A stretch of DNA of 8,237 bases, from IMG/VR virus record IMGVR_UViG_2660238318_000005; one strand, written 5' to 3'. The position numbers and the translations under genes are program-made. The notes beneath the pieces are model-generated. The model saw nothing but the letters and a program-made list of their open reading frames with translations. It was not told the origin of the DNA and made no database searches. The stretch is from a virus. Lineage: Duplodnaviria; Heunggongvirae; Uroviricota; Caudoviricetes. This document shows, in pieces, positions 1-8,237 of this stretch (positions are counted from its first letter, which is position 1; every line of letters starts with the position of its first letter).

Positions 1-69
1 AGCACCTGTGTTGTTCTGAGGTGAGCATATCACCTCTGTTCAGGTGGCCAAATTCAGTGTGCCACTTCA
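1..69 (+). mobile_element. Right terminus of an IS3-family insertion sequence (IS911-like), element body lies left of the window
   Basis: Reverse complement of 1-69 begins TGAAGTGGCACACTGAATTTGGCCACC..., the TGA...GGCCACC pattern of IS3-family terminal inverted repeats; it matches my recollection of the IS911 IRR, not verified by search. Ends ...CA at 69. Confidence 0.5.
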
Positions 70-89
70 GACATTCTGAGGTGACAGCG

Positions 90-968
90 ATGATGACGTT
101 TAACCTGCGTGAACAACAAAAAAGACTACAGGCGCGAATGGATGAGTTACGGGCAGAGATTGCATTTGCTCAGAAGGGCGAAAAGCCATGGCCTTATCGT
201 TCCTGCCTGATGCGTGAAGGTCGCGGATATTGCGAAAAACATGGCGAATATCACACGCATATACTGGTGTGGAGCGATCGTAATGGCGAGGACAGAGAAG
301 AAATTTCATGCTGCCCTGACTGCTTAATCGCTGAGGCCAACGATTTGACCATGGAGCTGTCGTCCATCAAGGCGGAAGAGCTGACTGATAACGCCGGAAT
401 TGCCCTGCGTTTTCGGGACTGCGAGTTTGATAATTATCTGGAGGTTAATCCTGGCGCAGCCAGAAATCTTGCGGCCTGTCGCCGCTATGCGGAGAACTGG
501 CCAGATATGCTGGAGAACGGTACCAGTCTTGTTATGACCGGCAGTTGTGGTACCGGAAAAAATCATCTGGCTGTGGCTATGGCAAAACACATCATCCGTA
601 ACTATCTGGCCAGTGTGGAGATCACCGACGTGATGCGCCTTACCCGTGCTGTGAAAAATTGCTGGCGGAATGACAGCGAAAAAACAGCGGATGAAGTTAT
701 TGAGCGTTATGCGTCAATGGATTTGCTGATCATCGACGAAGTTGGCGTTCAGTTTGGCAGCGCGGCTGAAATGGCTATTTTGCAGGAAATTATCAACGCC
801 AGGTACGAAAGTATCTTGCCCACCATTCTGATCAGTAACCTCTCACCGGAAGAGTTGTGGGCGTTCATCAGTCCCCGAATTGCCGACAGGATCACAGACG
901 GGGGACGCAACTGGTTGTCGTTTAACTGGCCCAGTTACCGTTCTCGTATCAGAGGTGTGGCTGCATGA
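90..968 (+). CDS. Phage replication protein, DnaC/IstB-family AAA+ helicase loader with an N-terminal Cys/His-rich region
   Basis: Walker A GSCGTGKNHLA and Walker B LLIIDEVG in the translation. ATG at 90 follows GAGGTG (78-83) at good spacing; the track's GTG start at 21 would lie inside the IS end. Stop overlaps the next start (ATGA at 965-968). Confidence 0.75.
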   Translation: MMTFNLREQQKRLQARMDELRAEIAFAQKGEKPWPYRSCLMREGRGYCEKHGEYHTHILVWSDRNGEDREEISCCPDCLIAEANDLTMELSSIKAEELTDNAGIALRFRDCEFDNYLEVNPGAARNLAACRRYAENWPDMLENGTSLVMTGSCGTGKNHLAVAMAKHIIRNYLASVEITDVMRLTRAVKNCWRNDSEKTADEVIERYASMDLLIIDEVGVQFGSAAEMAILQEIINARYESILPTILISNLSPEELWAFISPRIADRITDGGRNWLSFNWPSYRSRIRGVAA

Positions 969-2356
969 CAACTCCAGTATGGCGTAACGATGACCTTGAA
1001 GGCGCTGTCATCGGCGCGTTCTTTCTGCGCGGAGCAGATCCTGAAGTGATGGATATTCTGGCCACACTGCCAGCGGACGTTTTTTCTGTACGAGCGTATC
1101 AGGATATCTATACAGGCATCTGCAGACAGGCCCGTGTTTCAGGAGTGATTGACCCCGTGCTGTTGTGTAATGAGATGCCGGAACTTGCCCCGGTGATTAC
1201 TGATACCGGGCGTAAAACCTGGGTGAAGTCTTCACTGGAGCACTATGTTGCAGCGTTGCGGCGCAATGCCGCACTGCGCGATGCAGAAAAAACACTGAAT
1301 GAGGCGCTGCAGAAATTACGTGATGCGCATACCTGTGAAGCAGCTGAAGATGCCCTGAAGGATGCGCAGAACATGATGGTCACACTGTCGACAGGAAAGG
1401 GCGTCATTCAGCCGGTACATATTGATGATGTGCTTCCGGAAGTGGTTGAGCGTGTTGAATGCCGGAATCAGGGGCTGGAGAAATCCAGGACGTTGATGAC
1501 CGGTATTGATGAACTGGACGCAAAAACAGGCGGTATGGAGCCCGGAGACCTGGTATTCATTGCCGCCCGTCCTTCGATGGGGAAAACCGAACTTGCGCTG
1601 GACATCATCGACAAGGTGACTGAGCAGGGGCATGGTGTGCTTCTGTTCACCATGGAGATGGCGAACATCCAGATTGGTGAACGTATGGTGTCTGCGGCTG
1701 GAGGGATGCCAGTATCACGCCTGAAATCTGTGGCTCACTTTGAAGATGAAGACTGGACGCGTTTCTCACAAGGGGTGGGGCGGATGACCGGGCGCAATAT
1801 CTGGATGGTGGACCAGGCGAACCTGGCCATTGATGAGATATGCGCAACAACGAAACACCACCTGATTAAATATCCGGAAACGGCGCTGGTGGTGGTTGAT
1901 TATCTCGGGCTGATAAAAAACCGAACCACGGGGCGTCATGACCTTGCCGTGGGTGAAATCTCAAAGGGGCTTAAAGGCCTGGCAAAATCCGGTGGTTTTC
2001 CGTTGATTGCGCTGAGCCAGCTCTCCCGCGGTGTGGAGTCCAGACCCAATAAACGTCCCATGAACTCAGACCTGAAAAATTCCGGAGAAATAGAGGCGGA
2101 TGCAGACATCATTCTGATGCTTTACAGGGATGAAGTGTACAACCCGGATACGCAGGCCAGGGGCATCGCAGAAATCAATATCACGAAACAACGTAACGGT
2201 TCTCTGGGAACGATTTACCGGCGTTTTTATAACGGACATTTTCTGCCTGTGGACCAGGAAAGTGCACGGGTGCTTTCCACTCCCATGAAGCCCGGCAATC
2301 CGCGCAGATACAGTAATAAACGAACTGACAGCAGTAAGATGGAGCGTTTCTTTTGA
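965..2356 (+). CDS. DnaB-family replicative DNA helicase (phage P-like function)
   Basis: 463-aa ORF with RecA-fold motifs: Walker A AARPSMGKT, Walker B-like LVVVDYLGL, and a QLSRG segment. Start is coupled to the upstream stop by an ATGA overlap. Confidence 0.85.
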   Translation: MTTPVWRNDDLEGAVIGAFFLRGADPEVMDILATLPADVFSVRAYQDIYTGICRQARVSGVIDPVLLCNEMPELAPVITDTGRKTWVKSSLEHYVAALRRNAALRDAEKTLNEALQKLRDAHTCEAAEDALKDAQNMMVTLSTGKGVIQPVHIDDVLPEVVERVECRNQGLEKSRTLMTGIDELDAKTGGMEPGDLVFIAARPSMGKTELALDIIDKVTEQGHGVLLFTMEMANIQIGERMVSAAGGMPVSRLKSVAHFEDEDWTRFSQGVGRMTGRNIWMVDQANLAIDEICATTKHHLIKYPETALVVVDYLGLIKNRTTGRHDLAVGEISKGLKGLAKSGGFPLIALSQLSRGVESRPNKRPMNSDLKNSGEIEADADIILMLYRDEVYNPDTQARGIAEINITKQRNGSLGTIYRRFYNGHFLPVDQESARVLSTPMKPGNPRRYSNKRTDSSKMERFF

Positions 2357-2610
2357 ACAACCAGACAATGACTTTTACCCCTGAACAATTGCGTAAACAC
2401 GCGCAGGAAATGCTGCGTCATGCTGAACAACTCGAAAAAACGGGCATAACAAAAGATGCTATCCGTAAAGATATGGTACCCGCGCTTCGGGAACTGATGC
2501 AGGCGAAGCATCGCGCACAGAAAGCAGTAGATGAGCTGGTGGACTGTGTGGCAGAGCTGGAAACCAGAGTCGGAAAGTTTGAAAAACTGGTGCAGGAGGC
2601 GCTGCGCTGA
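2353..2610 (+). CDS. Hypothetical small protein, predicted helical/coiled-coil, unknown function
   Basis: ORF in the ren/nin position after the helicase. TTG at 2353 has GGAG 8 nt upstream and overlaps the helicase stop; an alternative ATG at 2368 would give 80 aa. No recognisable motif. Confidence 0.45.
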   Translation: MNNQTMTFTPEQLRKHAQEMLRHAEQLEKTGITKDAIRKDMVPALRELMQAKHRAQKAVDELVDCVAELETRVGKFEKLVQEALR

Positions 2611-2705
2611 TGCGCCATGAGTTTGTTTTGCCCTGGCTTGTGCGCGATCATTATGTCCCTGGTGGAAAGCCCGGGATAAAAATCACCGAACCGGAGAGTA
2701 TTTGA
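2610..2705 (+). pseudogene. rusA: rusA remnant: 31-codon in-frame internal-deletion derivative of a RusA Holliday-junction resolvase gene
   Basis: Peptide MRHEFVLPWLVRDHYVPGGKPGIKITEPESI matches the N-terminus (EFVLPYPP) and C-terminus (VRGQLVPGGRLGIKITELGCA) of the intact rusA at 3862-4227, also at nucleotide level (gaatttgttttgcc; ggataaaaatcac). The roughly 90 codons between are missing. Confidence 0.75.
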
Positions 2706-2905
2706 TGAGCGTCAAAATTCAAACGATACCGGAACTGCTTATCCAGACACGAGGTAATATGACCGAAGTTTCACGAATGCTGAACTGTAATCGCGCCACG
2801 GTAAGAAAATATGCTGAAGATAAAGAGGGCAAAGGGCACGCCATTGTTGATGGTGTTCTGATTGTTCATCGTGGATGGGACAGGGGTAAAGACAGTGATG
2901 CGTGA
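2705..2905 (+). CDS. ninH: NinH-like protein
   Basis: 66-aa product [59 protein letters not shown]... aligns along its length with lambda NinH as I recall it. Start overlaps the rusA-remnant stop (TGATG); it sits directly upstream of Q as in lambdoid phages. Confidence 0.85.
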
Positions 2906-3278
2906 TATTCAGCAGGTTCTTGAGCGCTGGGGCGCGTGGGTGGCTAATAATCATGAGGATGTGACCTGGTCGTCCATTGCTGCCGGTTTTAAGGGATTAA
3001 TCCCTTCAAAAGTAAAATCCCGCCCGCAATGCTGTGACGATGACGCGATGGTTATATGTGGGTGTATGGCCCGCCTTAACCGGAACAACAACGATCTACA
3101 TGACTTGCTGGTTGACTACTACGTGTTTGGGATGACATTCATGACGCTGGCGCGGAAGCATGGATGCTCAGATGGTTATATAGGAAAGAAGCTACAAAAA
3201 GCCGAGGGGGTGGTGGAAGGAATGTTGATGATGTTGGGTGTCCGGTTAGAAATGGACAAATATATTGAACATCCCTGA
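2898..3278 (+). CDS. Late antiterminator Q, short Q21/QuuD-type
   Basis: 126-aa product with cysteine cluster [16 protein letters not shown]; closely resembles the DLP12 QuuD sequence as I recall it. ATG at 2898 overlaps the ninH stop. A tR'-like terminator follows 87 bp downstream. Confidence 0.75.
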
Positions 3279-3364
3279 TGGTAAGGGGCGACTTTCTAGA
3301 AAATATTTTACGTACGTAAAAAACGGGATATTCTGTTAAGAGTGGTTGCTTCGCCACACAGCTT

Positions 3365-3389
3365 AAACCCGCCTCCGGGCGGGTTTTTT
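3365..3389 (+). terminator. Rho-independent terminator, tR'-like, downstream of Q
   Basis: Perfect 9-bp stem AAACCCGCC / GGCGGGTTT around loop TCCG, followed by a T-run. Near-identical in architecture to the terminator at 4975-5000. Confidence 0.7.
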
Positions 3390-3477
3390 ATGCCTGAAAA
3401 ACGGTACAGGACGTTAAACACGCTGGTGGTCAGATGAGTTTGCAGATGTGATGACATATGGTTATTATTCTGCCTCC

Positions 3478-3490
3478 GGCCCTTTAGCTC
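3478..3490 (+). tRNA. 5' fragment (13 nt) of a tRNA gene, truncated by the scaffold gap
   Basis: GGCCCTTTAGCTC is identical to the first 13 nt of the tRNA at 5106-5181. The preceding spacer shares motifs (CGCTGGTGG, GTTATTAT) with the region upstream of that tRNA. Confidence 0.5.
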
Positions 3491-3500
3491 NNNNNNNNNN
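3491..3500. other. Assembly/scaffold gap (N10)
   Basis: Run of 10 N; flanks are unrelated (tRNA 5' end on the left, mid-ORF sequence on the right). Confidence 0.9.
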
Positions 3501-3588
3501 TCCACCACAGGAAGAGACGGTGGTCAGCATTGCCGTTGATCCGGAATCTCCGGCTCAGTATCTCCAGCGCCAGAAACCACAACGGGAA

Positions 3589-3861
3589 GAGATGCCTGTA
3601 TACACGCGCTGGGTAAAAACGCAGAAATGCATGACGTGTGGCAATCAGGCAGATGATCCGCACCACATCATTGGTCATGGACTGGGAGGGATGGGAACAA
3701 AGGCTGACGATTTGTTTGTTATTCCGCTGTGTCGTAAATGCCATAACGAACTACACGCCGGGGTAAAAGATTTTGAAGAAAAACACGGTAGTCAGTTGTT
3801 GTTGCTGATTCGTTTTTTAATGCACGCGAGAAATTCGGGTGTTCTGAAGTGGAAAGCATAA
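3589..3861 (+). CDS. YbcO-like (DUF1364-type) Cys/His-rich putative zinc-binding nuclease-like phage protein; may extend upstream into the gap
   Basis: CxxC...HH...C..CH..H motif (CMTCGNQADDPHHIIGHGLGGMGTKADDLFVIPLCRKCHNELH). Sits immediately upstream of rusA, as ybcO does in DLP12. The frame is open back to the gap at 3501, so the true 5' end is uncertain. Confidence 0.55.
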   Translation, partial: EMPVYTRWVKTQKCMTCGNQADDPHHIIGHGLGGMGTKADDLFVIPLCRKCHNELHAGVKDFEEKHGSQLLLLIRFLMHARNSGVLKWKA

Positions 3862-4227
3862 ATGACCGAACGCATAGAATTTGTTTTGCCTTACCCGCCA
3901 ACGGTGAACACCTACTGGCGACGTCGTGGCAGCACATATTTTGTATCAAAAGCCGGTGAGCGTTATCGCCGTGATGTGGCGCTAATTGTTCGCCAGCAGC
4001 GACTGAAATTAAACCTGTCCGGAAGGCTGGCGATAAAGATTATTGCAGAGCCACCGGATAAGCGCCGTCGTGACCTGGACAATATCCTGAAGGCACCGCT
4101 GGATGCGCTGACGCATGCTGGACTACTTATAGACGACGAGCAGTTTGATGAAATCAATATTGTGCGCGGTCAGCTCGTTCCTGGTGGGCGGCTGGGGATA
4201 AAAATCACAGAACTGGGGTGCGCATGA
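3862..4227 (+). CDS. rusA: RusA-family Holliday junction resolvase
   Basis: 121-aa product with RusA hallmarks (RRRDLDN acidic motif, C-terminal GGRLGIKITELG). ATG follows the upstream stop directly (TAAATG). Confidence 0.85.
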   Translation: MTERIEFVLPYPPTVNTYWRRRGSTYFVSKAGERYRRDVALIVRQQRLKLNLSGRLAIKIIAEPPDKRRRDLDNILKAPLDALTHAGLLIDDEQFDEINIVRGQLVPGGRLGIKITELGCA

Positions 4228-4907
4228 ATAACCAGTATTTACAGTTTGTGCGTGAGCAGCTCATTATCGCCACCGCTGATTTGAGTGGGGCAACAAAAGG
4301 TCAGCTTGAAGCCTGGCAAGAGAATGCCATGTTCGATACAGGGCGTTACAGGCGTAAAAAAATCCGGTACCGCGATGAAGTGACTGGAAAAATGATAACG
4401 CGGGATAATCCACCAATCCCGGGAAAGCAATCGCTGGCGAAGGGGACGTCAATTCCTCTGGTCAGTCCGGTTGAGTTTTCGACATCATCGTGGCGGCGGG
4501 CTGTTCTGTCTCTTGAAGAGCACTATAAAGCCTGGTTGTTGTGGTGTTACAGCGGGAGTATTTGTTGGGAATATCAGATCGCGATAACACAGTGGGCGTG
4601 GAATGAATTTAATGCTCAATCCGGTACCAGAAAAATTGCAGGGAAAACGCAGGAACGCCTGAAAAAATTAATCTGGCTGGCGGCGCAGGCAGTAAAAGCA
4701 GAACTTTTTGGTGGGGAAGGTTATGAATACCAGGAGCTGGCATTACTGGCGGGAGTGACAACTAAAAACTGGTCCAAAACATTTACTCGTCACTGGGTTG
4801 CAATGAAACACATTTTTCACCGACTGGATAGTGAGGCTTTATTGTTTGTAATGAGAACACGTTCAAAAAAAAGACGGCATTTTCAAAGCAAAGTGTTGCA
4901 AAAGTAG
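4224..4907 (+). CDS. Putative late antiterminator Q, long type (Q82/QuuQ-like?)
   Basis: Assigned by position: directly after rusA (ATGA overlap) and directly before a consensus-like promoter, a tR'-like terminator, a tRNA cluster and a holin. I did not recognise the sequence itself. Confidence 0.5.
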   Translation: MNNQYLQFVREQLIIATADLSGATKGQLEAWQENAMFDTGRYRRKKIRYRDEVTGKMITRDNPPIPGKQSLAKGTSIPLVSPVEFSTSSWRRAVLSLEEHYKAWLLWCYSGSICWEYQIAITQWAWNEFNAQSGTRKIAGKTQERLKKLIWLAAQAVKAELFGGEGYEYQELALLAGVTTKNWSKTFTRHWVAMKHIFHRLDSEALLFVMRTRSKKRRHFQSKVLQK

Positions 4908-4924
4908 ATTGAAAGGCATATATT
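4896..4924 (+). promoter_or_regulatory. Candidate sigma70 late promoter (pR'-like) overlapping the Q-like gene's 3' end
   Basis: TTGCAA (4896-4901), 17-bp spacer, TATATT (4919-4924). About 50 bp upstream of the tR'-like terminator, which is the pR'/qut/tR' arrangement. Confidence 0.45.
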
Positions 4925-4974
4925 CATGCAAATCTGATACTTTGCCGATTTTGTACGTGATGGCAAAAGCAAAC

Positions 4975-5000
4975 AAAACCCGCCCACAAGCGGGTTTTTT
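4975..5000 (+). terminator. Rho-independent terminator, tR'-like
   Basis: Perfect 9-bp stem AAAACCCGC / GCGGGTTTT around loop CCACAA, then a T-run. Confidence 0.7.
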
Positions 5001-5105
5001 GTGCCACTTATCTCGGATAGACATGGTGAATGCGCTGGTGGAGGAGATAAGGGTGATTTTTGAATGCTTGCAACATTGATTTCGTAACGTTATTATCCTG
5101 CGCCC

Positions 5106-5181
5106 GGCCCTTTAGCTCAGTGGTGAGAGCGAGCGACTCATAATCGCCAGGTCGCTGGTTCAAATCCAGCAAGGGCCACCA
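5106..5181 (+). tRNA. tRNA with CAU anticodon, most similar to tRNA-Ile2 (lysidine type, ileX/ileZ-like)
   Basis: Cloverleaf by hand: acceptor GGCCCTT/AAGGGCC, anticodon loop CUCAUAA, T-loop TTCAAAT, 3' CCA encoded. Resembles E. coli ileX as I recall it; Met versus Ile2 cannot be settled from the anticodon alone. Confidence 0.75.
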
Positions 5182-5183
5182 AC

Positions 5184-5259
5184 CGCCACTAGCTCATCAG
5201 GAAAGAGCGTCAACCCTTTAAGTTGAGTGTGCGAGGTTCGAGTCCCCGGTGGCGGTCCA
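5184..5259 (+). tRNA. tRNA-like gene with atypical anticodon loop (CCUUUAA: UUU anticodon with C33); identity uncertain
   Basis: Acceptor CCGCCAC/GTGGCGG, D-arm GCTC...GAGC, anticodon stem TCAAC/GTTGA, T-loop TTCGAGT, 3' CCA. The loop lacks the near-universal U33. Confidence 0.55.
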
Positions 5260-5261
5260 GT

Positions 5262-5337
<76 letters not shown>

Positions 5338-5340
5338 TAT

Positions 5341-5415
<75 letters not shown>

Positions 5416-5474
5416 GTCAGAGTCTTTCAGTCTGCGATGATGGGAAATCCCGGAGTGACTGAAAGACGTTTAAG

Positions 5475-5547
5475 TTATGAATGATCGCCTTTTTTTGCAA
5501 AATTGCTGTGCAGAAATACTAACCTTCGGGCGTGCGATCATTCATAA
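5475..5547. repeat. Perfect 14-bp inverted repeat with 45-nt spacer in the tRNA-to-holin intergenic region
   Basis: TTATGAATGATCGC (5475-5488) is the exact reverse complement of GCGATCATTCATAA (5534-5547). A second 11-bp inverted repeat lies at 5422-5432 / 5457-5467. Confidence 0.6.
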
Positions 5548-5707
5548 GCACTCTGCTTTTATTCCGATTAACTGTGGGTGGTTTGTTGGATAGAGTGCTT
5601 TCCTTACTGTATATATCGTTTCGCCCGCTTTTGCGTTTTTTTCTTTTCAAATCCCTTTCATTTCTCAGTGTAAAACTACGCCATCCGTTATTTGCGGAGG
5701 TGAGGCT

Positions 5708-5923
5708 ATGAAATCCATGGACAAAATTTCAACGGGCATTGCCTACGGCACCTCCGCAGGCAGTGCTGGCTACTGGTTTTTACAGTGGCTTGATCAGGTC
5801 AGTCCGTCACAGTGGGCTGCGATTGGTGTACTGGGGAGTCTGGTTCTGGGCTTCCTGACTTATCTGACAAATCTGTACTTCAAAATCAGAGAAGACAAGC
5901 GTAAGGCTGCGAGAGGTGAATAA
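5708..5923 (+). CDS. S: Class II pinholin, phage 21 S-type (S21-like), with dual-start motif
   Basis: 71-aa product [30 protein letters not shown]... matches S21 as I recall it; the two Met codons (M1, M4) fit the antiholin/holin pair. Strong RBS GGAGGTGAGG upstream; stop overlaps the endolysin start (TAATG). Confidence 0.85.
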
Positions 5924-5939
5924 TGTCGCCATCATTACG
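5923..5939 (+). pseudogene. 5' stub (17 nt) of an R21-type SAR endolysin gene, interrupted
   Basis: ATGTCGCCATCATTACG is identical to the start of the endolysin copy at 6143; it is followed at 5940 by the GTAAGCG... element instead of CAAGGCTGTT. Confidence 0.6.
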
Positions 5940-6006
5940 GTAAGCGCCCCATCAGCGACGTCTTGTGAAAATTGTCCTGTCTGGCAACAATCGCGCCCAT
6001 CTATAT
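5940..6006 (+). mobile_element. Terminus of a repeated element, proposed IS66-family insertion sequence end (copy 1)
   Basis: GTAAGCGCCCCATCAGCGACGTCTTGTGAAAATTGTCCTGTCTGGCAACAATCGCGCCCATCTATA recurs at 6437-6502; both copies run into N10 gaps. IS66-family ends characteristically begin 5'-GTAA; family assignment is from memory. Confidence 0.4.
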
Positions 6007-6016
6007 NNNNNNNNNN
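6007..6016. other. Assembly/scaffold gap (N10)
   Basis: Run of 10 N between the repeated element end and a holin-internal sequence. Confidence 0.9.
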
Positions 6017-6017
6017 G

Positions 6018-6143
6018 GTCAGTCCATCACAGTGGGCTGCGATTGGTGTGCTGGGAAGTCTGCTTCTGGGGCTTCTGACTTATCTGACGAATCTGTATTT
6101 CAAAATAAGAGAAGATAAGCGTAAGGCTGCGAGAGGTGAATAA
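6018..6143 (+). CDS. S21-type pinholin, 3' portion of a second diverged copy, 5'-truncated by the gap
   Basis: Encodes ...[41 protein letters not shown], with several nucleotide and amino-acid differences from the copy at 5797-5923, so it is a paralogue and not the same locus. Confidence 0.7.
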
Positions 6144-6436
6144 TGTCGCCATCATTACGCAAGGCTGTTGCAGTTGCTATTGGTGGCGGGGCTGTTGCTA
6201 TAGCATCTGTGTTAATCACTGGCCCAGGTGGTAACGATGGTCTGGAAGGTGTCAGCTACATACCATACAAAGATATCATTGGTGTATGGACTGTATGTCA
6301 CGGACACACCGGAAAAGACATCATGCCTGGTAAAACGTATACCGAAGCAGAATGCAAAGCTCTCCTGAATAAAGACCTTGTCACTGTCGCCAGACAAATT
6401 AACCCGTACATCAAAGTCGATATACCGGAAACAACG
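6143..6436 (+). pseudogene. R21-type SAR endolysin (T4-lysozyme-like), N-terminal 98 codons, interrupted after ...DIPETT
   Basis: SAR-like N-terminus ([20 protein letters not shown]) and catalytic region [16 protein letters not shown] (E-x8-D-x5-T). Homology ends at 6436, where the GTAAGCG... element begins. Confidence 0.7.
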
Positions 6437-6502
6437 GTAAGCGCCCCATCAGCGACGTCTTGTGAAAATTGTCCTGTCTGGCAACAATCGCGCCCATCTA
6501 TA
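6437..6502 (+). mobile_element. Terminus of the same repeated element, proposed IS66-family end (copy 2)
   Basis: Same sequence as 5940-6005, again abutting an N10 gap. Confidence 0.4.
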
Positions 6503-6512
6503 NNNNNNNNNN
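6503..6512. other. Assembly/scaffold gap (N10)
   Basis: Run of 10 N. Confidence 0.9.
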
Positions 6513-6513
6513 C

Positions 6514-6540
6514 AAGCGTAAGGCTGCACGGGGAGAGTAA
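6514..6540 (+). CDS. Last 8 codons plus stop of a third S21-type holin copy, 5'-truncated by the gap
   Basis: Encodes KRKAARGE-stop, the same C-terminal tail as the holins at 5708 and 6018, with different nucleotides (GCACGGGGAGAG versus GCGAGAGGTGAA). Confidence 0.5.
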   Translation, partial: KRKAARGE

Positions 6541-6543
6541 ATA

Positions 6544-7173
6544 ATGAAGCATGAAGAAATGAATCAGCGATTCAATCACCTGGAAAATGAAATCACTGAG
6601 CTTAATAAAAAATTGTCGGCGTTGGTGAGTTCTGAAGATGAAAACAAACGCCGCGATGAGCATTATGCGGCGATTTACGATTACTGCCACAAAGTCGCTC
6701 ACGAGACTTTTATGAAGTTTTTGCAGGAAAAGTTTTTACCGGCCGCATTGTCAGAAAAAGAGGCGGCTTACCTGCGGCCTGAGTACGTCATTACGGTTAA
6801 CAGTGCCGGAGAGGAAGAGCATAAAAGTGATTTTATTGCGTCTGCACCGGATAAAGACCAGGAACCCCATCGGCCTTTCAGGGTTTCCTGTGAAGAGGGT
6901 GAGTTCGTCGTTTATGAGAACGGAAAACCTGTCCGGGCATCGCATCATCACTGCCTGAAAATTATTAATCTCGCTATCAGATGCCTGAAAGACGAAAACA
7001 CCAGAGTTATGAAACGCATTGGCCGTTGCATGGGGTATTTGCAGGTGGCGGCAGAGATTGAAGCACTTGCCAGTGGTGCAGACATGGATGCTGCGGTGCG
7101 GGAGGCTCTTCTTCGTGATTTCAATACTCCCCCTTTAAGAAAGAGCCTGATGACTGGATCCAGCCGGGGCTGA
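6544..7173 (+). CDS. Hypothetical 209-aa protein between holin and endolysin; no recognisable family, no signal peptide or TM segment
   Basis: Uninterrupted ORF with GGAG upstream of ATG 6544, starting 3 nt after the holin stop. Hydrophilic, with an N-terminal coiled-coil-like stretch (NQRFNHLENEITELNKKLSAL) and an HHHC motif. Confidence 0.5.
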   Translation: MKHEEMNQRFNHLENEITELNKKLSALVSSEDENKRRDEHYAAIYDYCHKVAHETFMKFLQEKFLPAALSEKEAAYLRPEYVITVNSAGEEEHKSDFIASAPDKDQEPHRPFRVSCEEGEFVVYENGKPVRASHHHCLKIINLAIRCLKDENTRVMKRIGRCMGYLQVAAEIEALASGADMDAAVREALLRDFNTPPLRKSLMTGSSRG

Positions 7174-7238
7174 CTTATCTTAAAAGGCGTATATAAGTTG
7201 GCTCGTTATTTGTTGCCGATAAATCCTGATAAATATCC

Positions 7239-7772
7239 ATGAGCGCAAAAATCAAATACGGCCTGTCGGCTGCTGTTCTGGCGCTGATTGCCGCAGGCGC
7301 GTCTGCTCCCCAGATACTTGACCAGTTTCTGAACGAAAAAGAGGGTAATCACACAACGGCATACCGTGATGGTTCTGGCATATGGACCATCTGTCGTGGT
7401 GCCACAATGGTGGATGGTAAGCCTGTCATACCGGGAATGAAGCTGTCGAAGGAAAAATGTGACCAGGTTAACGCTATTGAACGTGATAAGGCGCTGGCAT
7501 GGGTGGAGCGCAATATTAAAGTACCTCTGACCGAACCCCAGAAAGCGGGTATAGCGTCATTTTGCCCCTATAACATTGGCCCCGGTAAGTGTTTCCCGTC
7601 GACGTTTTATAAGCGGCTGAATGCCGGTGATCGTAAGGGCGCATGCGAGGCGATTCGCTGGTGGATAAAAGATGTTGGGCGCGATTGCCGCATACGTTCA
7701 AATAACTGCTATGGACAGGTTATTCGTCGTGACCAGGAAAGCGCATTAGCCTGTTGGGGGATAGATCAATGA
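7239..7772 (+). CDS. SAR-type endolysin (glycoside hydrolase family 24, T4-lysozyme-like)
   Basis: Gly/Ala-rich weakly hydrophobic N-terminus ([17 protein letters not shown]) typical of signal-anchor-release domains, then the E-x8-D-x5-T catalytic motif ([16 protein letters not shown]). Stop overlaps the Rz start (ATGA). The RBS is weak. Confidence 0.8.
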
Positions 7773-8173
7773 GCAGAGTCACCGCGATTATCTCCGCTCT
7801 GGTTATCTGCATCATCGTCTGCCTGTCATGGGCTGTTAATCATTACCGTGATAACGCCATTACCTACAAAGAGCAGCGCGACAAAAACGCCGGAGAACTG
7901 AAGCTGGCGAACGCAACCATTACTGACATGCAGCAGCGCCAGCGTGATGCTGATGCACTCGATGCTAAATACACGAAGGAGTTAGCTGATGCGAAAGCTG
8001 AAAATGATGCTCTTCGGCGCAAGCTTGATAATGGTGGTCGGGTGCTCGTCAAAGGAAAATGCCCTGTGCCATCCTCAGCCGAAACCTCCAGCGCCTCCGG
8101 CATGGGCAATGATGCCACCGTCGAACTCTCTCCAGTTGCTGGACGAAACGTTCTCGGTATCCGGGACGGGTGA
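7769..8173 (+). CDS. Rz: Rz i-spanin (inner-membrane spanin subunit); C-terminus possibly truncated by the adjacent IS
   Basis: N-terminal TM segment ([20 protein letters not shown]), then a charged coiled-coil region. Follows the endolysin and contains the embedded Rz1 frame. The stop TGA (8171-8173) is also the first three bases of the IS end. Confidence 0.8.
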
Positions 8174-8183
8174 GGTAGCCTGA
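7989..8183 (+). CDS. Rz1: Rz1 o-spanin (outer-membrane lipoprotein) embedded in the +1 frame of Rz
   Basis: Signal peptide with lipobox LIMVVGC, proline-rich mature part ([16 protein letters not shown]) resembling lambda Rz1 as I recall it, and a strong SD AAGGAG 8 nt upstream. The last codons (..GEVA-stop) are read from the IS end. Confidence 0.8.
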
Positions 8184-8237
8184 GTTTAACGGACACTCCT
8201 TCCTGAAATAGAATGGCATCAGAAGGAGCTAATAATG
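8171..8237 (+). mobile_element. Left terminus of an IS3-family insertion sequence (IS600-like), with the start of its orfA at 8235
   Basis: TGAGGTAGCCTGAGTTTAACGGACACTCC... has the IS3-family TGA-initiated inverted-repeat form, then an RBS GGAG and ATG at 8235. It resembles the IS600 IRL as I recall it, not verified. Confidence 0.5.

Follow-up and report, generated by a model that had tools for sequence, protein, structure and literature searches.

A likely short-form, frameshifted member of the extended YdfR family between the holin and endolysin genes of a Shigella flexneri lambdoid prophage

The stretch of viral DNA analysed here (IMG/VR record IMGVR_UViG_2660238318_000005; 8,237 nucleotides, referred to below as the window) carries, between the end of a holin gene and an endolysin gene, an open reading frame of 209 codons, ORF209. 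Its position raises the question of whether a lysis cassette of this kind has been interrupted by a chance or foreign insertion or has a regular place for an additional gene, and what the product of such a gene might do. A sequence-only reading of the window took a holin followed directly by an endolysin as the norm and regarded ORF209 as an odd insertion that could not be recognised.

The window is a draft scaffold of four pieces that has been mis-scaffolded, and this bears on every gene-order reading of the window. The pieces are separated by three N10 runs (3491-3500, 6007-6016 and 6503-6512). The first of them (1-3490) matches the closed S. flexneri genome CP182555 (L096) at 99.97%, and the last (6513-8237), which carries ORF209, matches it at 100%. 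In L096, the counterparts of these two pieces are only 778 nt apart, and within this interval lie four tRNA genes and the entire S21-type holin gene; LR213455 (L098), also a closed S. flexneri genome, repeats the layout. The piece at 3501-6006 contains a DUF968/HNH gene, RusA, a second type of Q antiterminator, four tRNAs and a holin, and the piece at 6017-6502 contains the end of a holin gene and 98 codons of an R21-like lysozyme. Since these two pieces are only 95.6-98.2% identical to the true locus where they overlap it, they come from other lambdoid prophages. Thus, the “S21/R21 copy” at 5708-5925, which had served the sequence-only reading as its standard of comparison, lies outside the ORF209 cassette and was brought in from another prophage by scaffolding; its holin (5708-5923) is on a separate scaffold piece and is 95.6%, not 100%, identical to the true locus.

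Several further observations concern the pieces themselves. Two unrelated Q antiterminator genes (2898-3278, PF06530, and 4218-4907, PF06323) are present in one window because the scaffold is chimeric. The two middle pieces both end with an identical 69-nt left end of an IS66-family element (5937-6005 and 6434-6502), which in E. coli NDM6 precedes tnpA/tnpB/tnpC; the two R21-like endolysin genes that it breaks are different ones, the first being interrupted after codon 5 and the second after codon 98. A tRNA of the 3501-6006 piece (5183-5259) has the anticodon TTT (Lys), its homologue in L096 and in E. coli CFSAN029787 (L001) being TCT (Arg); it carries a compensatory acceptor-stem change and scores 44 bits with Rfam versus 65-72 for the neighbouring tRNAs. 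At the right-hand end, the alignment of the window to L001 stops at 8169, and the sequence from 8170 to 8237 is the left end of IS600, which truncates Rz, changes the last codons of Rz1 and is shared by closed S. flexneri genomes. With this IS600 copy in Rz/Rz1 and with transposase genes or IS elements on both sides of its replication genes, the prophage that carries ORF209 is defective and IS-disrupted.

The features of the ORF209 locus are the following.

6514-6540, + strand: end of an S21-type class II holin (pinholin) gene, KRKAARGE and stop, read from the sequence; the remainder is lost in the N10 gap at 6503-6512
6544-7173, + strand: ORF209, ATG...TGA, 209 aa in the ORF listing; assigned to the extended YdfR family / phrog_1085 as a short-form (DUF1327-less) member with a frameshifted 3′ end
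6550-6732, + strand: N-terminal helical region, residues 3-63, with AlphaFold2 helices at 3-27 (pLDDT 85-90) and 31-63; common to DUF1327-containing proteins; dN/dS 0.5-0.6
6733-6873, + strand: acidic, variable, mosaic linker, residues 64-110, predicted disordered (pI 4.7; pLDDT <50), with indels and block replacements between alleles
6874-7131, + strand: conserved C-terminal domain, residues 111-196, predicted as three short strands followed by three helices (pLDDT 70-82), with invariant or near-invariant columns; dN/dS 0.16-0.30
7129-7133, + strand: C5 run with the site of a 1-nt deletion, third base of the Pro196 codon, from a DNA alignment with five intact alleles
7134-7196, + strand: ancestral 3′ end, now out of frame; by translation, the conserved tail FKKEPDDWIQPGLTYLKRRI and stop, with tail residues conserved family-wide
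7239-7772, + strand: RrrQ-type lysozyme, 177 aa (PF00959, E 5e-24; phrog_7 endolysin), with a Gly/Ala-rich hydrophobic, SAR-like N-terminus
7769-8173, + strand: Rz i-spanin gene (PF03245, phrog_13), cut at 8170 by IS600
7989-8183, + strand: Rz1 o-spanin, embedded in Rz (PF06085 in L096)

As can be seen, only the last eight codons and the stop of the holin are present in the window, and the location of ORF209 between holin and endolysin, as first read, is established from closed genomes instead. In L001, L096 and L098, the full holin (71 aa, PF04971) ends 3 nt before the ATG of ORF209, which is followed by 65 nt, the lysozyme and Rz/Rz1. The 65-nt spacer (7174-7238) and the weak ribosome-binding site of the endolysin had been correctly read, there being no GGAG-like site at the start at 7239. 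A PF04971 holin, a PF00959 lysozyme with a hydrophobic N-terminus and Rz/Rz1 together define a pinholin/SAR-endolysin cassette around ORF209, which itself is no defining component of it.

ORF209 fares better than a chance ORF: it matches phrog_1085 and has more than 130 homologues, and its pairwise dN/dS values between alleles are in the range of 0.16-0.38 overall (about 0.3). The C-terminal half alone gives 0.16-0.30, and most values for the N-terminal half lie at 0.4-0.7. A dN/dS of about 0.3 indicates that the family is translated and under purifying selection, and the ORF at 6544-7173 is therefore accepted as a real gene. The description of its product as a soluble protein with a coiled-coil-like N-terminus, an acidic middle and a His/Cys-containing C-terminal half is also borne out. 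The best 19-residue Kyte-Doolittle mean is 0.76 and the GRAVY is −0.63, with no hydrophobic stretch, so the product is soluble and cytoplasmic in character; the idea that it is a released effector finds no signal peptide in its support. A heptad pattern (F10-L13-I17-L20-L24-L27) coincides with the AlphaFold2 helix at residues 3-27, which probably serves oligomerisation. Residues 66-110 are acidic (pI 4.7), and residues 111-197 contain three His and four Cys. A conserved zinc or other metal site made of these residues was considered and rejected, since only H136 is invariant family-wide and C162 is replaced by S or A in some relatives.

We have searched for relatives of ORF209 with profiles and with homologue searches. 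In PHROGs v4, the protein matches phrog_1085, whose function is not annotated, with an E value of 1e-73 (249 bits) over profile positions 117-288 of 296; YdfR of E. coli K-12 matches positions 1-79 of the same profile. A search of ~5.8 billion proteins retrieved 132 relatives, and all matches with a named source were from E. coli or Shigella. Many of the relatives are short forms of 185-222 aa with an alike start (MNHEEMNQRFSRLENEI...), and many others are long forms of 268-333 aa in which an N-terminal PF07041 (DUF1327) domain precedes the ORF209-like region. P0004, a long form of 333 aa that is named “YdfR family protein”, is 82% identical to ORF209 over the common part. Through a profile search of 1.84 billion cluster representatives and a second homologue search, the family grew by several hundred proteins of Salmonella enterica and by a few sequences that are more distant, and relatives of the ORF209 C-terminal domain were found in Salmonella and other enterobacterial contigs. 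The long forms of E. coli and Salmonella are homologous over their full length (hhalign probability 99.9%).

As judged from these alignments, the family is built on a common plan: an optional DUF1327-like N-terminal domain, a putative coiled-coil helix, an acidic linker that is variable and mosaic, and, at the C-terminus, a conserved domain of ~110 aa. This last domain is marked by F-x-V, an invariant His, K-R-(I/L)-G-R-C-M-G-(Y/L)-L-Q-V-A-A-E-I-E and a tail, D-N-P-P-F-K-x-x-P-x-x-W-x-x-P-G-x-x-Y-L-K-x-R. ORF209 contains F-x-V, SHxH and K-R-I-G-R-C-M-G-Y-L-Q-V-A-A-E-I-E, and in alignments A1-A4 the family motifs F-x-V, H136 and G-R-C-M-G-x-L-Q-x-A-A-E-I-E are present in it. The family assignment depends on the alignment of its C-terminal region with the YdfR-family long forms, and these do align. 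No DUF1327 domain (PF07041) was found in a Pfam scan of ORF209 or by tblastn with a DUF1327 query against the window and L001. Thus, by its predicted architecture, ORF209 is a recurrent short form that begins at the coiled coil and is devoid of DUF1327; it is equivalent to the last two thirds, on the C-terminal side, of a long YdfR family protein.

The ORF cannot be called unrecognised, then, because it belongs to phrog_1085 and the exact 209-aa protein has been deposited on at least 1000 contigs. It occurs in 3334 index blocks under the names “bacteriophage protein” or “hypothetical protein [Shigella]” and in thousands of Shigella flexneri assemblies. Of 5426 complete E. coli genomes, 1066 (about 20%) contain DNA that is related to ORF209 over at least a part, and 79 match it over 80% of its length or more. 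We conclude that ORF209 represents the allele carried by S. flexneri / enteroinvasive E. coli of a late gene that is widespread in enterobacterial lambdoid prophages.

The end of the ORF209 protein differs from that of its relatives. The 20-residue tail of the family is replaced by 12 out-of-frame residues, LRKSLMTGSSRG. Invariant or near-invariant positions of this tail are F, K, P, W, P, G, Y, L and R family-wide, and P, K, W, P, G and Y keep this status even when E. coli is compared with the most distant relatives. The tail, from P-P-F-K onwards, is missing from the protein and is kept in the DNA in another frame. Comparison with the intact alleles places a 1-nt deletion near 7130-7131, from which the C5 run results, and the end of ORF209 is not native. 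Since the tail is still encoded downstream of the frameshift, the ancestral protein had 217 aa and its spacer to the lysozyme ATG was 42 nt; a spacer of 42 nt is found in L004 and L006. The deletion is common to L001 and closed S. flexneri genomes, and six complete E. coli genomes as well as closed S. flexneri chromosomes contain the frameshifted allele as a whole. A sequencing error was considered as its source and rejected, since closed genomes and more than 3000 index blocks contain the identical allele. The copy in this window is probably impaired; the fixation of the frameshifted allele is compatible either with a tolerated loss or with retained activity of the truncated protein. Taken together, the identity, architecture, position and frameshift of ORF209 as given here are likely to be right.

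One could go further and regard the gene as a decaying remnant without function in any genome, left over from a DUF1327 gene after a 5′ deletion. The ORF209 allele is frameshifted and that of L003 is annotated as such, many genomes retain just the last 190 nt of the gene, unannotated, and the prophage in this window is defective. However, many lineages have intact short forms (213-217 aa) with a common start region of their own, the C-terminal half evolves with a dN/dS of 0.16-0.30, and conservation of the C-terminal domain extends from E. coli to Salmonella and further. We therefore consider a mere remnant very improbable.

We then asked how regular a gene between holin and endolysin is. In the Qin prophage of K-12, essQ is followed after a 4-nt gap by ydfR, which rrrQ overlaps, and the GGAGAG-TAA junction is as in the window. 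ORF209, between an S21-type holin and an RrrQ-type lysozyme, occupies the position characteristic of the YdfR family. We sampled 80 IMG/VR loci (L012-L091), selected by a holin at least 90% identical to that at 5708-5923 and hence biased to one holin type, and 75 of them had a recognisable downstream lysozyme. The slot is empty in 28 of the 75, where the lysozyme is R21-like and always abuts the S21 holin. It is filled in the other 47, where the lysozyme is always RrrQ-like and the insert, 374-1263 nt long, gives a DUF1327 match. Thus, in E. coli and Shigella, the interval between an S21-type pinholin and an RrrQ-type SAR endolysin is a commonly filled, regular gene slot. The view of a direct holin-endolysin succession as the norm and of ORF209 as an odd insertion has to be given up, and a filled slot is to be expected in annotation and in “odd insertion” screens for this cassette type. 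The occurrence of a gene between S and R in other prophages, which the first reading had proposed to check, is in this sample the more frequent state.

The slot is not the only place of the gene. Salmonella L007 and L009 and the more distant contig L092 carry the family member immediately upstream of the holin, which is of the S21 type and overlaps an RrrQ-like lysozyme; what the family is associated with is therefore the cassette as a whole and not the precise S-R junction. A convergent ORF of ~105 aa (phrog_1853) is found directly after ORF209 relatives at 5654-5968 of L002, 4599-4916 of L009 and 585-902 of L094 (minus strand). E. coli, Salmonella and one distant contig are represented among these loci; in L093, an ORF of 107 aa is weakly similar, and no phrog_1853 ORF is present in the window.

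No promoter-like or terminator-like site and no Rfam element was found at 6500-7240 or between the cassette genes. A Shine-Dalgarno-like GGAG (6532-6535) lies in the last codons of the holin, 8 nt before the ATG of ORF209. Since nothing promoter- or terminator-like separates the genes and this GGAG is located inside the holin end, it is reasonable to expect that ORF209 is co-expressed with the lysis genes of the late operon and, judged by the junction, is coupled to the holin. Co-expression at lysis, as suggested earlier, thus holds as a prediction. The gene itself would not be needed for lysis, because the slot is empty in 28 cassettes whose holin is at least 90% identical.

The same facts can be taken to mean that the product is a regulator of lysis timing, i.e., a cytoplasmic protein made in step with the pinholin that binds the charged cytoplasmic tail of the holin, or affects endolysin synthesis, and delays or sharpens triggering. 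The ribosome-binding site inside the holin 3′ end with the ATG 3 nt past the holin stop would suit such a protein, as would the constant location of the family beside S21-type holin / RrrQ-type lysozyme cassettes in E. coli, Salmonella and more distant contigs and the fact that, in the E. coli sample, an RrrQ-type lysozyme never abuts the holin directly. However, the sequence is not antiholin-like, a transmembrane segment and a periplasmic domain being absent. In Salmonella, the gene is upstream of the holin, with the convergent ORF between them, and cassettes with near-identical holins work without the gene, as phage 21-type S-R does. The link to the endolysin type may also reflect nothing but common descent of the module. 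On balance, we find a timing regulator doubtful.

A conflict function (superinfection exclusion, anti-defence or defence) of a moron riding in the late operon has also to be weighed. Such a role would be in line with the extreme mosaicism and block exchange between alleles, with the cargo location (stx/nanS-p adjoin the gene in L002, and a pertussis-like toxin gene is near it in L009) and with the frequent pairing with the small convergent phrog_1853 ORF. Against this, PADLOC gave no match and so lends no support to the defence factor that had been listed among the candidates; enzymatic, nucleotide-binding and membrane motifs are all absent; the gene has no promoter of its own, so that expression in the lysogen is not evident; and the conserved core is under ordinary purifying selection. 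A conflict moron is, in our estimate, improbable. The toxin gene of Salmonella L009 (2157-3469) is pertussis-S1-like by faint Pfam matches and is located upstream of the family member; another instance of cargo beside the cassette is a ParD/ParE toxin-antitoxin pair, downstream of Rz, in E. coli CFSAN029787 (L001 10864-11398).

Fold and function were sought by several methods. Pfam and NCBIfam scans of ORF209 gave nothing significant, and those of its relatives gave DUF1327, in long forms only. Profile searches against PDB sequences (alignments A2 and A4) produced chance-level matches only (E ≥0.07), so that no confident match to a known lysis-cassette component or a housekeeping family emerged from the Pfam, NCBIfam and PDB profile searches; marks of an antiholin or holin regulator were likewise not found, either as a hydrophobic or transmembrane segment in ORF209 or as a match in these databases. 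PADLOC-DB was also searched with P0002 and P0004, with no match, and with P0090, which had one weak PbeC match (E 0.018). An AlphaFold2 model of ORF209 built with 60 E. coli homologues was unusable (pLDDT 52). That of the intact relative P0002, built with 93 sequences including Salmonella, reached a pLDDT of 63; in it, the N-terminal helix is confident, the linker is disordered, and the C-terminal domain consists of three short strands and three helices (pLDDT 70-82). Structure prediction, which had been proposed earlier, thus models the helix and the C-terminal domain but supplies no fold match, since Foldseek against BFVD returned nothing at E ≤0.001. Conservation and the dN/dS values, in turn, agree with a translated gene.

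In the literature, we found no study of the ORF209 protein; a screen for RNase E interactions with K-12 YdfR was the only related work. Residues 1-72 of K-12 YdfR interact with the catalytic half of RNase E (residues 1-597) in two-hybrid and co-purification experiments, purified YdfR carries RNA, and few transcripts change when YdfR is overproduced (PMC13232886). The residues that yielded these data are the DUF1327 domain, which is absent from ORF209. A short-form relative in E. coli 2015C-3121 is followed by a gene for 75 aa that stands on its own and bears the annotation DUF1327 domain-containing (L005 2197-2424). Since DUF1327 is fused to the ORF209-like module in long forms and is encoded by an adjacent separate gene in L005, the two are probably linked functionally.

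Proceeding from this link, we tentatively favour a reading in which the protein of intact relatives would be a late cytoplasmic accessory factor, dispensable for lysis, on an axis of DUF1327, RNase E and RNA. Such a protein would self-associate through its N-terminal helix, its C-terminal domain would bind a partner that acts jointly with the DUF1327 module, and the outcome would be a tuning of RNA fate or of lysis-gene expression late in infection. As a whole mechanism, this may well be incorrect, and a role in lysis could instead be indicated by the strict link with RrrQ-type endolysins. The probability left over from the accessory-factor reading and its three rivals is assigned to something else.

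What the locus adds is, for the most part, ordinary and of limited significance: the sequence and its family are already catalogued, the arrangement is already in K-12, the protein is deposited from thousands of Shigella assemblies and this copy, a further short-form, frameshifted member, is probably damaged. The point of interest is the unnamed conserved C-terminal domain, fused or adjacent to DUF1327. This domain of ~110 aa has no Pfam model and no structural neighbour, and it is kept in E. coli, Shigella, Salmonella and other enterobacterial prophages, always beside S21-holin / RrrQ-endolysin cassettes. That it represents a new class of cytoplasmic regulator, coupling host RNA decay (via DUF1327/RNase E) or pinholin triggering to lysis timing, is a speculative and rather unlikely proposition; if true, the filled S-R slot would be a functional fourth component of this cassette type. 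The tie between DUF1327 and RNase E provides a concrete, testable lead for a large group of “hypothetical” prophage genes, those of Stx phages included.

Among known systems, YdfR of K-12 Qin (PF07041) is one of those close to ORF209: its gene occupies the same slot, from the S21-type holin gene essQ to an RrrQ-type lysozyme, and shares the GGAGAG-TAA-ATG junction with ORF209. Both proteins match phrog_1085, and long YdfR family proteins carry an ORF209-like region after DUF1327. They differ in that DUF1327 is missing from ORF209 and an ORF209-like C-terminal domain from YdfR; no residues are common to both, and the connection between them runs solely through the long forms. To the phrog_1085 profile, ORF209 corresponds over its own full length (117-288), but profile positions 1-116 are missing from it, and the frameshift has replaced its last residues. 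The short forms of Stx-converting phages (Stx2_12E129, BCI98956.1) have the architecture, start region and holin-endolysin position of ORF209, with 63% identity over 96% of the length; unlike ORF209, they are intact (213 aa) and have another central block, and in L002 the convergent phrog_1853 ORF comes next. The holin antagonist LydB of phage P1 is also a soluble protein encoded just after a holin gene, lydA; its likeness to ORF209 is a positional analogy only, as the lysis system is a different one and a sequence relation is not expected.
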